This document shows, one piece after another, positions 12,001-18,000 of a stretch of DNA of 64,000 nucleotides. The stretch lies in assembly GCA_043826355.1 (NCBI GenBank), contig JBDRQI010000003.1, forward strand, positions 1-64,000, read 5' to 3'. Within the stretch, counting starts at the first letter, position 1. Every line of letters begins with the position of its first letter. The stretch is from Candidatus Omnitrophota bacterium. GTDB lineage: Bacteria; Ratteibacteria; UBA8468; MWAK01. Position numbers: made by a program.

Positions 12001-15000
12001 GACCTCGGTAATCCTTGATTTGGCCGGCGTGGGTTACGAAGTGAGCATACCGCTTTCTACCTTCGACCATCTACCCGAAACGGGCGGCGAAGTTTTTCTT
12101 TATATTTACCCCTGCTACCGGCCGGAAAATATTACCCTTTGCGGTTTTGCCACCAAGGAAGAGAAACTGCTCTTCAACCTTCTTCTGGGGGTAAACGGCG
12201 TGGGTCCAAAACTCGGGCTGACCATCCTCTCCGGCACAACCGCGGCTCACTTCCGGGATGCTATTATTTCCGGAGACGATAAGACACTCTGCGCTATTTC
12301 CGGTATCGGTAAAAAACTGAGCCAGCGCCTGATTACCGAACTGAAAGACCAGATTATCAATCTGGAAGAATCTCTTTCCTCCGGTACGGAATCATCTCTG
12401 GAGAAAGAGGCGATTGGTGCCCTGGTAACACTGGGCTATTCCCGCGCCAAAGCCTACAAAGCAGTTCAGGACGCAATGAATTCCAGGAAACCGGGTAGAT
12501 TGGAACCGTTAATTAAAGAGGCCCTGAAACGGATTTAATGCAACGGTGTCATTCCCGCAGACAGCAAGCGGGAATCCATTTTAGTAGGTTTGATGTCATA
12601 ATTGATTCCCGATGGAAAAAAAACGGATTGACCTTACCGCACCCGATACTCTCCCCGAGGACACAAAGTATGATATCGCCCTGCGTCCGGTCAGCCTGGA
12701 CGATTTTATCGGCCAGGATAAACTGAAACGAAATCTGAAAATTTTTATCCAGGCCGCATCCGAACGTAAGGACCCGCTTGACCACACGTTATTTTCCGGT
12801 CCGCCGGGTCTGGGTAAAACGACGCTGGCGCACATTATCGCTGCGGAAATGGGTGTAAAGATCAAAGCCACTTCCGGTCCCGCGATTGAACGCCCGGGAG
12901 ACCTGGCCGGCCTGTTGACCAACCTTGGCCGTTCCGACGTAATCTTTATTGACGAAATACACCGGCTTAATCATACCGTAGAAGAATACCTGTACGGTGC
13001 GATGGAGGACTTTCACATTGATATTATGACTGGGGACGGTCCGCGCGCCAATTCCATCCGATTGACCCTGGAACCGTTTACCCTGCTCGGCGCCACCACC
13101 CGCGCCGGCCTTTTAACCGCGCCCCTGCGGTCCCGGTTCGGCATCAACCTGCGGCTGGATTATTATCCGTCGGACAACCTGGCGGCCATCGTGCGGCGCT
13201 CCGCCGGAATTCTCAAAGTTGTGATTGAAGACGGGGCCTCCGGAGAGATTGCCCGGCGCAGCCGCGGGACTCCCCGGATCGCCAACCGTCTTTTGCGCCG
13301 GGTGCGGGATTTCGCCCAGGTTTCCGGCGAGAAGATAATCCGGCAGGAACTGGTTGTTTCGGCGCTGGACAGCATGGATGTCGACCGGTTCGGACTGGAC
13401 GAGATGGATAAGCGTATTCTGGAGGTCATCATCCAAAAATTTTCCGGAGGACCGGTAGGCGTTAAAACCCTTTCGGTAGCGGTCGGCGAAGAAGTGGATA
13501 CCCTGGAGGAGATTTACGAACCGTTTCTGGTCAGGGAAGGATATTTGGAGCGGACCCTGAAAGGCCGCCTGGCAACACCCCGCGCTTATCAGCATCTTAA
13601 TCTGGAAATTCCGAAGTCGTTGTCCGACCAGTCTAAACTTTTTAATAATACATAGTTATTATGCCGTTCTGAGCGTAAGCGAAAATCCCGTGGTAACGTA
13701 GTGCGACTCTGTCAGGGTCGCCCACAGAACACTATGCTTTCAGCCGAAAATATTTTCAAGAGTTATCGCGACAAACCGGCGGTAAACGGTCTTTCCCTCG
13801 AGGTTAAAAAGGGTGAAATCGTAGGGCTTCTGGGACCAAACGGCGCCGGCAAGACAACTACATTTTACCTTCTGATCGGCTGGCTCCGTCCGGACCGGGG
13901 AAATATCCGCCTGAACGATAAAGAGATAACGCGATTGCCGATGTACCGGCGGGCGAGGTTGGGCCTCGGTTATCTGCCGCAGGAACCATCGGTCTTCCGC
14001 AAATTGACCGTGGAAGATAACCTGACCGCGGTCCTTCAGTTTCAGCCGCTTTCGGCGAAAGAACAAAGAAAACGCCGGCTGGAAGTACTGGAAAAAATGG
14101 GGCTGACCGCGCTTTCAACGCAAATCGCCGGTACTCTCTCCGGCGGTGAACGCCGCAAGGTTGAGATTGCCCGCAGTCTTGTGCTTAACCCTTCGTACCT
14201 CCTGCTGGATGAACCGTTCAGCGGAATCGACCCGATTACCATCGAAGATATCCGCGTGATTATCCGGAACCTGGCCCGCTCCGGCATCGGAATTTTGATT
14301 ACCGACCACAACGTCCGCGAAACCCTGTCAATTACGGACCGCTCCTATCTTGTTTTCCAGGGAAAAATTCTGATTTCCGGTTCCGGGCCGGAACTGGTAA
14401 ACAATCCGGAAGCCAGGCGTTTTTACCTCGGCGAAACATTTACTTTGTAGATTTCTCTCTCGGGGGAGAGGGTGAAAGGTAAAGGGTAATTTCTGTGCAT
14501 ATTGGAATCATTATGGACGGGAACGGCCGCTGGGCTAAAAAGCGCGGCCGGCCGAGGATTTTTGGCCACAAAACCGGCGCGGACCGGATTGATGAAATCG
14601 TGCGCGCCTGTCCGGATTTAGGCGTCAAATATCTATCGCTTTACGCTTTTTCCACGGAGAACTGGAACCGGCCGGGAAAAGAAGTCGGTTTTTTGATTAA
14701 ACTTTTCGCGGAAAAGATAAAGAAGAAAACGGCCGGGATGAAGAAGGAAGGCGTCCGGGTTCTATTTTTAGGCGACCGGACCGCTTTTCCGGAAAACCTG
14801 CAGAGCTTGATGGCGTACTGTGAATCTGAAACCGCATCCGGCCGGAAAGTTAACGTGGCACTCTGCCTTAATTACGGAAGCCGGGATGAAATCGTAAGGG
14901 CGGCGCGCAGAATCAGCGAAGAGGTGCAGGCCGGAAAACTGAAACCGTCACTGATTACCGAAAACCTCTTCAGCCAATATCTTGACACCCGGGAACTGCC

Positions 15001-18000
15001 GCCGCCGGATTTAATAATCCGCACCAGCGGAGAGTTGCGGTTATCCAACTTTTTCCTCTTTCAATCCGCCTACGCGGAGTTATATTTTACCCAAACCCTC
15101 TGGCCGGATTTCAGCACCGGGGAATTCGCTTCCGCGCTTGCTGAGTTAAAAAAACGGAAACGGCGTTTCGGAGACGTTTAGTAGTGCGACCCTTTCAGGG
15201 TCGCCTGCAGGGGAGGGGTTCTGTCTCCTCCCGCACCTTTTGTCAGTGCGTCCAAATAATTTTAATGTTTGCTAAAAAACGAATTGTAATTCTCGGCTCC
15301 ACCGGTTCCATCGGCTGCAGCACGCTGGCGGTTATCCGGCGTTTCCCGGAGCGGTTTAAGGTTGTGGGTCTTTCCGGACACAGCCGGGTCGGATTGCTGA
15401 AAAAACAGGCGGCTGAATTCAAGCCGGAGGCGGTCGCTTTAACCGGTACGGCGGTTTTCAACCGCGCCGTTTCAGTAAAAAAAAGTTTTACGGAAGGAAC
15501 AAAATTACTCCTGGGAACCGACGGATTACGCCGGACGGTCTTCTGGCCGGAAGTGGACCTGGTGGTCCTGGCAATCCCTGGAACAGAATCGCTGATGCCG
15601 GCTTTCTGGGCCGTAGAATCAGGCGCAAACCTGGCGCTGGCCAGTAAGGAGGCGCTGGTAATGGCCGGCAGTCTCCTGACGGATAAAGCGAAGAGAGCCG
15701 GTGTTCAAATCATTCCGCTGGACAGCGAACATAATGCCGTTTTTCAAATCGTTTCCGCTTTTCCGGAACGAAGTATCAAAAAAATTTACCTTACCGCCAG
15801 CGGCGGTCCCTTCTGGCAAAAAAAGAAGGGGAAGGTGAACCGGCAAAAGGTCCTGGCCCACCCGGTCTGGAAGATGGGTCGGAAAGTTACCGTTGACAGC
15901 GCGACGATGGTAAATAAGGCTCTGGAAATAATTGAGGCGCATTATCTTTTCGGTTTACCGCCGGAAAAAATCAAGGTTTTAATTCACCCGGAGGTTGCGG
16001 TCCACGGGATGGTTGAGTTTGACGATGGTTTCACCATGGCCAACCTTTCCGCACCGGATATGCGGCTTTCAATCGCCTCCGGGCTCTTCTGGCCGGAAAG
16101 ACCGCCGGCCAGCCCAATATCTACTTCGCTTTCTCTGGGGAGCCTGGGTAAACTCACCTTTCACCGGCCGGCTCACCGCCAATTCCCGGCCTTGACTCTT
16201 GCTTACCGTATTCTGGAAAAGGGCGGCGGTTATCCGGCAATCTTTTCGGTGGCTAACGAAGAAGCAGTTAATGCTTTCCTGAACGGATTGATTGAATTTG
16301 AAGGAATCCTGCCTCTGATAAAAAAAGTTCTGGAAAAAGAAGCGCCTTCTTCCCGGTTAACTCTTACCGAAGTACTGAAAATTTCCGAAGAGACCCGGCA
16401 ACTCACCCGCTTTCTTTTAGGGATTCCCACTAACGCTGCAGGCTTTTTTTCGCAATGAAATGACCCCTTACCATTCTTTGCCGCTCCAAAACATCTTCTC
16501 TTTTCTCAAGGATAAAGAACCTTTTGCGCTTCTGGAGACCACCCGCTGCGACCCCGAAAACTTTCTTTCCTATATTTTTTATGAGCCGGATGGCAAGATT
16601 GAAATCAGCAATTATTCGGACCTGCCCCGGTTTTTCAACCAGATAGAATCCTTTTTACGAAAAGGCTATTACCTGGCCGGATTCTTTTCTTACGAAGCCG
16701 GCAATTTCCTTAATGTAGGGGAGGGGCTACGAACCCTCCCGCTTTTACGTAGTGCGACCCTTTCAGGGTTGTCGTCTTTGTCTTTTCCCCTGGCCCGTTT
16801 TTATCTCTTCCGGAAACCGCTGGTATTTGACCACCGGTCCGGTCTTTTTCCCGGCAATTTCCAACCCGGAGGTTCGGAATTTCCCGAAAATTACACCCTG
16901 GAAAAACCCCGGCTCAACACCGGTTTTACGGAATACCAGAAGAACGTCGGCCGCATCAGAGAATTAATAAAAGCCGGAGACACTTACCAGGTCAACTATA
17001 CCCTGAAATGCAACTTTAATTTCTCCGGTTCGCCTTTCGGCCTTTACCAAGACCTGCGGGAAAAACAGACGGTCGCTTATTCTGCTTTCATCAAAAACCG
17101 CGACTTTTCCCTGCTCTCTTTCTCTCCGGAACTATTTTTCCGCAAGGCCGGCCGGAAGATTATGGTCCGGCCGATGAAAGGCACCATCAGCCGGGGAAAA
17201 AATACCTGTCGGAACAGACAGCAAATGCAAATTTTGAAACAGAGTCCCAAAGAACGTTCCGAAAACGTAATGATTGTTGACCTTTTGCGCAATGATTTAG
17301 GCCGGGTCTCCGAGGTGGGTACGGTCCGGACCGATTCGCTCTTTGATATTGAAGAATATGAAACACTTTTCCAGATGACTTCCACCATCTCCGGCATCCT
17401 GAGAGAAAACCTCTCTTTTGGGGAGTTATTTGAAGCCGTCTTCCCTTCCGGTTCGGTTACCGGCGCACCCAAAATAAGGACGATGGATATCATCCGGGAA
17501 CTGGAAAAAGAGGCACGCGCCGTCTATACCGGAGCCTTGGGGATTTTCTTCCCGAACCGTGACGCAGTCTTTAACGTGGCTATCCGCACCCTTCGTATTA
17601 CCGGGGAAGAAGGTGAAATGGGGGTCGGAAGCGGAATCACCTTTGATTCCGATGCCGGGCGGGAGTATGAAGAGTGCAAACTGAAAGCGCTCTTTCTGAC
17701 CAAAAAAATGTAACAAAACTGTCCTTTCCATGTCAAAACTCCAACCTCGGCAAATTCCGCACCGCCGGACCCCTTTTCCAGCCGGTGTCGTGAGGAGGCA
17801 GCGGGCAGGGGTTTTCGTGCCGGAAGGGCACGAAAAGAGCGCCGACGAGCGTCAAGTGAAATAAATCCTCGCCGGGGATTGATGAACGTCCGGCTGGAAA
17901 AGGGGGTCTGGCAAAGGTACGGTAATTCCGAGATGCTGAATTTAGATTACAGAAAAACAGCCTAATATGGTAAAATAAATAGCTATGACAGTTAACCTGA

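Follow-up and report, generated by a model that had tools for sequence, protein, structure and literature searches.

Results

uppS and dxr adjoin without an intervening cdsA

The window analysed here is a stretch of 64,000 nucleotides (contig JBDRQI010000003.1, positions 1 to 64,000) from a member of the Ratteibacteria, hereafter the study genome. On its forward strand, uppS, encoding undecaprenyl diphosphate synthase (14495..15181; NCBIfam TIGR00055, 270.8 bits, cut-off 109.55), is followed by a geneless spacer of 83 nt at the usual seat of cdsA (15182..15264) and by dxr, encoding DXP reductoisomerase (15265..16458, forward strand; TIGR00243, 353.9 bits). The genome-wide survey's note had described uppS as running straight into dxr with a gap of 2 nt. 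There is indeed no space for cdsA, but 2 nt is the distance to an upstream GTG at 15184; in the form that begins with the ATG at 15265, the likely start, the match to the Dxr profile opens at residue 5. An RseP-type M50 protease with a PDZ domain (17985..19058, forward strand; PF02163 and PDZ) lies downstream; we take it to be RseP, whose gene normally comes next in the uppS-cdsA-dxr block. uppS adjoins dxr also in G045, G014, G225 and G167; of the other Ratteibacteria read, two of three have the two genes contiguous. In G201 and G173 cdsA sits between them. The window further encodes a flippase-like LPG_synthase_TM membrane protein with no synthase domain attached (31082..32017, forward strand; PF03706, E 8e-35; TIGR00374), a single-HKD protein of the PLD family with an export signal (43273..43821, reverse strand; PF13091, below every NCBIfam cut-off) and LpxK, the lipid A 4'-kinase and a marker of a diderm envelope (44642..45613, reverse strand; PF02606, E 4e-76).

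CDP-alcohol phosphotransferases and CdsA are missing

Nearly all bacteria attach phospholipid head groups with CdsA and a CDP-alcohol phosphotransferase. PF01066 was found in none of 65 Ratteibacteria genomes at E<=10, including none of the 31 genomes that are at least 90% complete (high-quality genomes), with 13 of 14 positive controls detected. By comparison, 85 of 96 outgroup genomes (one per family) carry PF01066; the other 11 indicate that loss of PF01066 alone also occurs outside Ratteibacteria. In the study genome, an unfiltered (--max) search of 12,824 six-frame ORFs with a local CDP-alcohol phosphotransferase HMM built from 20 outgroup proteins gave a best E of 1.6, and neither the strict nor the loose form of the family motif had a match. 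Neither PF01066 nor CdsA was present among 202 of its 203 proteins with at least two predicted helices. Since the study genome is 85.7% complete, the claim of absence rests on the phylum tally. The step catalysed by PgsA, PssA, PIS or Pcs in the CDP-DAG (Kennedy) pathway was hence not found in Ratteibacteria, and the survey's claims of phylum-wide absence, of a motif missing from all six frames and of retention in neighbouring lineages are all borne out.

PF01148 matched 39 of 65 Ratteibacteria at E<=1, 15 of them over the cut-off and nine under 1e-5, with a best E of 3e-8 as against 1e-33 to 1e-66 for the best matches of true CdsA. All 14 loci opened encode a Dgk-like protein of 190 aa, in keeping with the earlier reading of these weak matches as a Dgk/phytol-kinase-like protein and not CdsA. 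The CdsA signature motif is absent from the study genome, and a CDP-DAG synthase of the CdsA family was not found in Ratteibacteria. Tam41 scored over the cut-off in none of five genomes (four of them Ratteibacteria), nor did any control; CarS, in a small sample, was again over the cut-off in none of five. As far as sequence can show, phosphatidylglycerol (PG) from the canonical route is excluded, and no known route to or from CDP-DAG was found; Lgt would therefore need a donor other than canonical-route PG, which supports what the survey had deduced.

A Dgk-like protein is an accessory partner of a PlsY paralogue

The Dgk-like protein occurs in 46 of 65 Ratteibacteria; seven of the 31 high-quality genomes lack it, as do all four genomes of genus g14. 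Relative to four CdsA proteins it has a 26-residue deletion that removes the KRxxxxKD...GHGG..DR segment. It displays the pattern GDA...G...G...K.EG and E...DDN, which we take to assign it to the Dgk1/VTE5/Sec59-type family. The top two structural matches of its predicted model (pLDDT 90.7) are CdsA 4q2e (Z 10.5, 172 aligned residues, rmsd 4.9) and CarS 5guf (Z 8.0), consistent with a CdsA/CarS superfamily fold, but Z values of this size can arise by chance among helical folds, and the Foldseek E is only 0.097. Among nearby Atlas clusters one is auto-named cytidylyltransferase family and another diacylglycerol/polyprenol kinase. Close relatives are found in 23 outgroup genomes, of which 22 keep PF01066; a viral scan for the gene found none.

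A PlsY paralogue gene, plsY2, lies directly upstream in 29 of 30 loci and overlaps by a few bases in the 30th, and an LpxL-like gene stands within 2.5 kb of the pair in 16 of 30, confirming the neighbourhood of PlsY paralogue and acyltransferase noted before. The C-terminal HxxN histidine seen in 5xj5 is missing from PlsY2. In G058 and G038 there is a single PlsY and no Dgk-like gene. The missing signature segment and the absence from good genomes rule out the Dgk-like protein as an essential CdsA substitute. Judged by its distribution, the plsY2-dgk pair is accessory and, for this reason and because relatives of the Dgk-like protein coexist with PF01066 in outgroups, does not explain the loss. 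The protein would be an accessory CTP-dependent lipid kinase that acts with the PlsY paralogue in salvage. It resembles the CTP-dependent kinases Dgk1, VTE5 and Sec59 in having a CdsA-like fold without the CdsA signature, and in its kinase-named Atlas neighbour; it differs from them in its tight coupling to a PlsY paralogue.

Lipid and envelope genes are retained

The study genome encodes PlsX, PlsY, PlsC, Lnt, LspA, LpxI, LpxB, LpxK, KdtA, a DgkA-PAP2 fusion and LPG_synthase_TM, as the survey had listed for PlsX/Y/C, lipid A synthesis and lipoprotein processing; the gene beside plsY is presumably gpsA. PlsX and PlsY exceed their cut-offs (TIGR00182, TIGR00023) and PlsC matches PF01553 with E 5e-24. 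Among Ratteibacteria, PlsC was found in 4/4 and PlsY in 3/3 genomes tested. DgkA occurs in three of three further genomes, which agrees with the reported spread of the DgkA-PAP2 fusion. FabF is present, so fatty-acid synthesis is intact, and MlaE, MlaD and a glycerophosphodiesterase were found. A PatA-like protein reaches 134 bits with PRK07920, below the cut-off of 209, and several membrane proteins of the study genome have no Pfam match.

Candidate lipid enzymes and routes were rejected in turn. A split MprF making aminoacyl-DAG is no general answer, the LPG_synthase_C domain occurring in only 17/65 genomes. Ino1 and the PatA-like gene had suggested a route to inositol lipids, which was discarded with Ino1 in 4/65, amid sugar-handling genes. 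A YpfP/MGDG-type synthase was dropped (MGDG_synth in 0/5 genomes), no glycosyltransferase reached an NCBIfam cut-off, a UbiA-family protein scores MenA-like, and a TagF-like gene sits in a polysaccharide cluster. The soluble proteome was scanned in part (281 of 766 selected proteins), so a new enzyme may have escaped notice.

Lgt keeps conserved residues but not His103

Lgt (TIGR00544, over the cut-off) is present in 63 of 65 Ratteibacteria, revising the earlier 61 of 65 and upholding its near-universality, and in all 31 high-quality genomes. lgt adjoins lspA in 21 of 24 loci, and 18 lipobox matches were counted versus five with an equally frequent control residue. Residues Y26, G98, G104, R143, G154, R239 and R246 are invariant in all 25 Ratteibacteria aligned, whereas His103 of the HGGL motif is replaced in every one, by Glu in 14 and by Gln in 11. 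E. coli Lgt needs His103, and its H103Q variant does not complement; the activity of Ratteibacteria Lgt is thus putative. Outside Ratteibacteria, Glu103 is also found in G167 and G161, which likewise lack CdsA and PF01066. The change is not diagnostic of the loss: genomes of NPL-UPA2 that lack both CdsA and PF01066 have His or Phe there, homologues labelled Omnitrophota often carry Gln, and the position varies (His, Tyr, Trp) in PF01066-positive genomes too.

The double loss recurs in other lineages

Judged by gene content, the trait is not unique to Ratteibacteria. Loss of both CdsA and PF01066 with Lgt kept recurs in Caldisericota (Caldisericum exile and a Cryosericum relative) and in two NPL-UPA2 lineages; there it is a family-level event, while in Ratteibacteria it is phylum-wide. 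C. exile has been grown in pure culture. Its genome is closed, and cdsA is cleanly cut from the operon. Within these lineages, the clean deletion of cdsA between uppS and dxr, in an otherwise intact operon, was read in G225 and the single-contig G167. A published table lists PgsA as 0 for C. exile (PMC11804483, Dataset S2), and Fig. 6 of the same paper is described as marking phyla largely without PgsA. C. exile has no DgkA, unlike the Ratteibacteria tested, and G087 has four PlsY. On the Lgt tree the double loss falls in about four separate places, three of them beside lineages that keep PF01066, so the loss appears to have happened several times in bacteria, and this scatter would fit dispensability without a rare invention.

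Eight of the 11 PF01066-negative outgroup genomes keep CdsA. Among them are Deinococcus, which the survey had already remarked on for lacking PF01066, and Coprothermobacter; both, with Fimbriimonas, are without PgsA in Dataset S2 (PMC11804483). With canonical CdsA kept, the Deinococcus and Coprothermobacter genomes tested could still make CDP-DAG, whereas Ratteibacteria could not. Lgt is kept in D. radiodurans and G106.

Discussion

The explanation we favour, at about an even chance for all its parts together, is that Ratteibacteria lost the CDP-DAG branch outright and that glycerophospholipid synthesis stops at phosphatidic acid (PA), which would serve both as anionic phospholipid and as the lipid from which Lgt takes its diacylglyceryl group. 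The retained PlsX, PlsY and PlsC, identified by sequence, are enough to make PA. In the Lgt reaction, phosphate would leave in place of glycerol-phosphate. PA would probably also be the acyl donor of Lnt, and the rest of the inner bilayer might, more tentatively, be a neutral lipid made from diacylglycerol, either a glycolipid or an aminoacylated one. PA as donor has a direct precedent, by analogy, in E. coli Lgt in vitro, which accepts DPPA and DPPS, though less well, but not DAG, PE or PC (PMC4728403).

Life without CdsA has been described in Streptococcus mitis and Streptococcus oralis: cdsA-null strains are viable, accumulate PA without PG and cardiolipin, and are named by their authors the first CdsA-independent model organisms (PMC5404519). 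They are, however, monoderm mutants obtained by drug selection, and they still have phosphatidylcholine and a glycolipid derived from PA (PMC5404519). Ratteibacteria are a whole phylum of diderms with lipid A and Lnt in which the loss has become fixed and extends to PF01066. A diderm example, the E. coli pgsA lpp double mutant, keeps PE. Such mutants live without PG and accumulate PA and CDP-DAG (PMC4464175), but they are engineered, keep CdsA and require removal of Lpp. Several observations speak against PA as the end point: PG-less E. coli die when Lpp is present (PMC4464175), E. coli Lgt uses PA poorly (PMC4728403), the searches for MGDG_synth, LPG_synthase_C and Ino1 yielded no core neutral-lipid enzyme, two exported HKD proteins are core, and G140 lacks PlsY.

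Possible, though on the unlikely side, is that undescribed CDP-DAG-independent enzymes add a head group to PA or DAG, or acylate a ready-made head-group backbone, and that the product feeds Lgt. The PlsY paralogue with a PatA/LpxL-type acyltransferase would exemplify backbone acylation. That outgroup genomes keep CdsA without PF01066 suggests that bacteria probably have head-group chemistry yet to be recognised. The coupling of plsY2 to dgk and often to an LpxL-like gene, the histidine missing from PlsY2, the PatA-like protein, the changed position 103 of Lgt and the membrane proteins without Pfam match point in the same direction. In this scheme such head groups might exist in Ratteibacteria and, independently, in Caldisericaceae and some of NPL-UPA2, with the His103 site of Lgt retuned (to Glu twice) to a new donor, a proposal that we hold just as tentatively. 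On the other hand, the plsY2-dgk module is missing from the good genomes G058 and G038, and a candidate core enzyme was not found. Moreover, the 400 kb of G167 that was read (26% of its 1.56 Mb) contained no relative for any of 16 lipid-related queries, a weak test; of 35 queries against this part, only PF06695 found one.

Still less probable, and in our view distinctly unlikely, is that phospholipids are scavenged from other organisms and cleaved or trans-phosphatidylated by the two HKD (PLDc_2) proteins, giving PA or PG for Lgt. Both proteins (183 and 310 aa) carry export signals, as first reported, and are core (63/65 Ratteibacteria, 31/31 high-quality), which keeps the PLD-type route of the survey's caveat in play. 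E. coli ClsB makes PG from PE and glycerol. The HKD proteins score 44.5 and 27.5 bits against the cardiolipin synthase model TIGR04265 (cut-off 290). Mitochondrial cardiolipin hydrolase is among their PDB relatives (E 2.5e-6), but the best match is to the endonuclease Nuc (1byr, E 5.6e-9). In NCBIfam, DrmC heads the ranking for both proteins, and NucT stands higher than cardiolipin synthase in that of the two-domain protein. The single-HKD gene follows a hisA-like gene in nine of ten loci opened, and the two-domain gene has no flanking lipid genes in ten. MlaE, MlaD and the glycerophosphodiesterase speak for scavenging, and the lack of PlsY in G140 fits it better than PA as the end point; intact fatty-acid synthesis and PlsX/Y/C, and a cultured C. 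exile with the same double loss, argue against it.

For the 190-aa protein, identity as a divergent CdsA (the caveat attached to the original observation), with an unrecognised partner using the CDP-DAG, is now very improbable: its best structural match is CdsA, its weak PF01148 matches and one Atlas name agree with this, but the signature segment is missing, the protein is absent from good genomes and from genus g14, relatives coexist with PF01066, another Atlas name is that of a kinase, and an acceptor enzyme was looked for and not found. That the absences stem from incomplete metagenome bins or from the search filter is largely refuted: all 65 genomes are multi-contig, the study genome is incomplete and the genome search had a loose first filter, yet Lgt was found in all 31 high-quality genomes and PF01066 in none, the unfiltered local search was negative, uppS and dxr are contiguous in other Ratteibacteria, and G167 and the published entry for C. 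exile agree.

No account of a whole lineage having lost cdsA and pgsA turned up in the literature covered, outside of which most subscription journals lie. In general, CdsA is regarded as essential and nearly universal; the exception found in print is the drug-selected streptococcal mutants (PMC5404519). A diderm phylum with PA, lipid A and lipoproteins but without CdsA and CDP-alcohol phosphotransferases must build its membrane differently. Either a natural cell with two membranes can make do with PA as its final anionic lipid, or a hidden head-group pathway exists. This bears on minimal membranes, on the donor specificity and mechanism of Lgt, and on PG as a biomarker, and the cultured C. 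exile, with the same double loss, makes the question testable.

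Absence of the CDP-DAG branch

The CDP-DAG branch of lipid synthesis has been lost throughout Ratteibacteria, and the loss is repeated elsewhere. The profile of the CDP-alcohol phosphotransferases PgsA, PssA and PIS (PF01066) matched none of 65 Ratteibacteria genomes at E<=10, including the 31 with a completeness of 90% or more; it was recovered in 13 of 14 positive controls and in 85 of 96 outgroup genomes, each from a different family. Since the genome search pre-filters, an HMM built from 20 outgroup CDP-alcohol phosphotransferases was run unfiltered on the 12,824 six-frame ORFs of the genome under study (1.87 Mb, 38 contigs, 85.7% complete; the window is contig C3), where the best match had an E-value of 1.6. 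The phylum-wide absence claimed in the genome-wide survey's note is thus confirmed. The CdsA family (PF01148) gave matches in 39/65 genomes at E<=1, 15 of them over the cut-off; the best reached 3e-8, compared with 1e-33 to 1e-66 for true CdsA. All 14 loci opened encode one 190-aa Dgk-like membrane protein, which agrees with the note's view that canonical CdsA is missing and that the weak matches stem from a short Dgk-like protein. Tam41 was found in none of five genomes, CarS in none of five over the cut-off.

A crude caller predicted 1,727 genes in the genome under study. We scanned 202 of its 203 proteins with at least two predicted helices and 281 of the 766 soluble or one-helix proteins selected (150-560 aa), and none was a CdsA, PF01066, cardiolipin synthase, PgpA, Psd, LicD or OlsB-type protein. 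The other 485 soluble or one-helix proteins were set aside by eye on their first 38 residues (454) or as housekeeping genes (31), and 23 genes lay outside the loci covered.

In the window, uppS (14495-15181) is followed by dxr. The gap of 2 nt claimed before takes the GTG at 15184 as the start of dxr. The match to the Dxr profile begins at the ATG at 15265, giving a spacer of 83 nt, which is far too short for cdsA, as had been concluded. uppS abuts dxr in two of three other Ratteibacteria genomes read (G045, G014); in the third (G038) a different gene follows uppS. A gene at 16460-17713, which we take to be PabB-like, intervenes between dxr and rseP, which adjoin in G045 and G014.

Recurrence in other lineages

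PF01066 is missing from 11 of the 96 outgroup genomes; eight keep CdsA and three lack both, two of these three retaining Lgt. The CdsA-positive, PF01066-negative genomes include, by source names, Deinococcus and Coprothermobacter; the survey had remarked on the lack of PF01066 in Deinococcus. Canonical CdsA without PF01066 was seen in genomes G076, G089, G090, G106, G115, G122, G132, G153, G173, G186 and G201. An independent listing (Dataset S2, PMC11804483) gives PgsA as 0 for C. exile, D. radiodurans, Fimbriimonas and Coprothermobacter; the Discussion of that paper carries no comment on these rows.

Among Caldisericota, PF01066 was detected in 19 of 61 sampled genomes, strongly in only 9. 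The single-contig genome G167, whose Lgt bears the source name Caldisericum exile, possesses Lgt and lacks both CdsA and PF01066; its gene run, presumably pyrH-frr-uppS-dxr-rseP, is intact except for cdsA (locus L308). In the Caldisericota genomes G201 and G173, cdsA is still in this place. Like G167, G185 has neither CdsA nor PF01066; another member of its family, G182, falls in one cluster with a protein named Cryosericum. In the NPL-UPA2 genome G225 (L311) cdsA is likewise cleanly gone from an intact pyrH-frr-uppS-dxr-rseP run. PF01066 occurs in 8 of 13 NPL-UPA2 genomes; four (G140, G224, G225, G232) have lost it together with CdsA and kept Lgt.

The Lgt tree comprised 48 rows, 13 of 25 Ratteibacteria rows having been left out for thinning; CdsA status was assessed in genomes other than G161 and G182. 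The Ratteibacteria sequences are monophyletic (100/97) and lie next to those of PF01066-positive NPL-UPA2. Each pair of NPL-UPA2 genomes with the double loss has a PF01066-positive group as its sister, and the rows of Caldisericum and Cryosericum group away from these. If Lgt tracks the species tree, these positions would imply about four independent losses of CdsA and PF01066.

Retained lipid genes and Lgt

The genome under study keeps PlsX, PlsC, Lnt, LspA, LpxI, LpxB, LpxK, KdtA, LptF/G and FabF, and a canonical PlsY whose gene adjoins what we take to be gpsA. Lgt was reported as retained and is indeed present in 63/65 genomes and in all 31 of high completeness, with lspA next to lgt in 21 of 24 loci. 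Eighteen proteins fit the lipobox pattern, compared with 5 when a control residue of the same frequency is used. A BamD/YfiO-like protein (L199:12235-13149) has a cleavable N-terminal signal and no evident lipobox cysteine. Downstream of lgt, many f2 and f4 genomes (L017-L040) have an unannotated ORF of roughly 120 aa that is without a match in the genome under study. There, a MenA-like prenyltransferase gene (G000:C1:131975-132742; L045:19070-19837) adjoins those of a polyprenyl synthase and an oxidoreductase.

Y26, G98, G104, R143, G154, R239 and R246 of Lgt are invariant in all 25 Ratteibacteria aligned. E202 is Tyr in 24 of them, and His103 is Glu in 14 and Gln in 11 (L017-L040; own copy G000:C11:29155-29886, minus strand, L074:9281-10012). 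In E. coli Lgt, H103Q fails to complement (PMC4728403). Glu103 also occurs in two Caldisericaceae (G167, G161), and neither Glu nor Gln is found at 103 in 17 Lgt from PF01066-positive genomes. A tie between this change and the loss of CdsA and PF01066 may be taken as a lead only: the residue is His or Phe in double-loss NPL-UPA2 and Phe in G185, and Gln103 is common among 120 homologues, some labelled Omnitrophota.

Phosphatidic acid and the alternatives

Judged by gene content, phosphatidic acid (PA) can be made, and no known gene leads onward from it via CDP-DAG. PA might be the end point of synthesis, serving as anionic lipid and Lgt donor; we regard the chances of this as about even. There is precedent for it: DPPA and DPPS serve E. 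coli Lgt as weaker donors, but DAG, PE and PC do not (PMC4728403), cdsA-null S. mitis and S. oralis are viable with raised PA and without PG and cardiolipin (PMC5404519), and E. coli pgsA lpp mutants are viable (PMC4464175). The weak point of the PA reading is the bulk neutral lipid. The DgkA-PAP2 fusion could interconvert PA and DAG, but its context is phoH-ybeY-dgkA, which is familiar from undecaprenol kinase, and C. exile has no DgkA.

Of candidate enzymes for this neutral lipid, MGDG_synth was found in none of five genomes and no glycosyltransferase scored over an NCBIfam cut-off. LPG_synthase_C is present in 17/65 genomes, in 9 of 19 without the Dgk-like gene versus 8 of 46 with it, counts in which kin are not independent; a stand-alone copy lies at G000:C12:63938-64900, minus strand (L079:5534-6496). 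Ino1 occurs in 4/65 genomes, here among sugar-handling genes (G000:C6:39553-40638, minus strand; L066:18174-19259), and we know of no enzyme that would route the inositol-1-phosphate of this genome to lipid. An unrecognised head-group system is possible, at a distinctly lower probability than PA as end point, and scavenging seems rather unlikely.

A lipid role of the HKD (PLD-family) proteins is also possible. PLDc_2 is found in 63/65 genomes, and export signals, as the survey stated, are predicted on both the one-domain protein (43273-43821 of the window, minus strand) and the two-domain protein. Both score far under the cardiolipin synthase cut-off. In 9 of 10 loci the one-domain gene comes after a presumed hisA-like gene, and a presumed topA lies upstream in 8 (L212-L221); the two-domain gene has no lipid neighbours in 10 loci, and its product is nearest to Nuc endonuclease, mitochondrial cardiolipin hydrolase being a close second. 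A nuclease function is the likelier assignment.

That the 190-aa protein is a divergent CdsA is very improbable. Its model (pLDDT 90.7) has CdsA 4q2e (Z 10.5, 172 aligned, rmsd 4.9) and CarS 5guf (Z 8.0) as its nearest structures, with a Foldseek E-value of 0.097. As a stand-in CdsA it was ruled out, because the 26-residue segment with the CdsA signature is missing from it, because it is patchy (46/65 genomes; absent from 7 of the 31 most complete and from 4/4 of genus g14) and because its relatives (E<=1e-15) occur in 23/96 outgroup genomes, PF01066 being retained in 22 of those 23. An artefact is the least probable reading of the absence.

Immediately upstream of the Dgk-like gene, 29 of 30 loci have a PlsY paralogue, and 16 of 30 carry an LpxL-like gene within 2.5 kb. 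The C-terminal HxxN histidine of solved PlsY is missing from this paralogue. We infer that these genes may form an accessory kinase-acyltransferase salvage module. In the genome under study both paralogues lie away from the Dgk-like gene, each ahead of an alpha/beta hydrolase gene, as near-duplicate pairs with a membrane-anchored hydrolase (G000:C2:20890-22346 and C31:72293-73668). G087, of Caldisericota and without CdsA and PF01066, has four PlsY paralogues (L186, L187, L189, L191). An acyltransferase (G000:C11:80902-81750; L077:2000-2848) has the PIM acyltransferase PatA as its best NCBIfam match (134 bits, sub-cut-off), in a genome without PI synthesis.

Relation to published work

We found no report of a lineage-wide loss of both cdsA and pgsA in the literature covered; subscription journals, figures and bioRxiv supplements fall outside it and may bear on novelty. 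PMC13691511 and PMC12720230, in the parts available, give the canonical route only, and the main text of bioRxiv 10.64898/2026.06.07.730766 does not contain "lipid", "cdsA" or "pgsA". Since CdsA-independent life and PgsA-less bacteria are both already known, the Ratteibacteria case is a variant of these. What is new is that the loss is natural, fixed and found in diderms, and that it is testable in a cultured species, C. exile.
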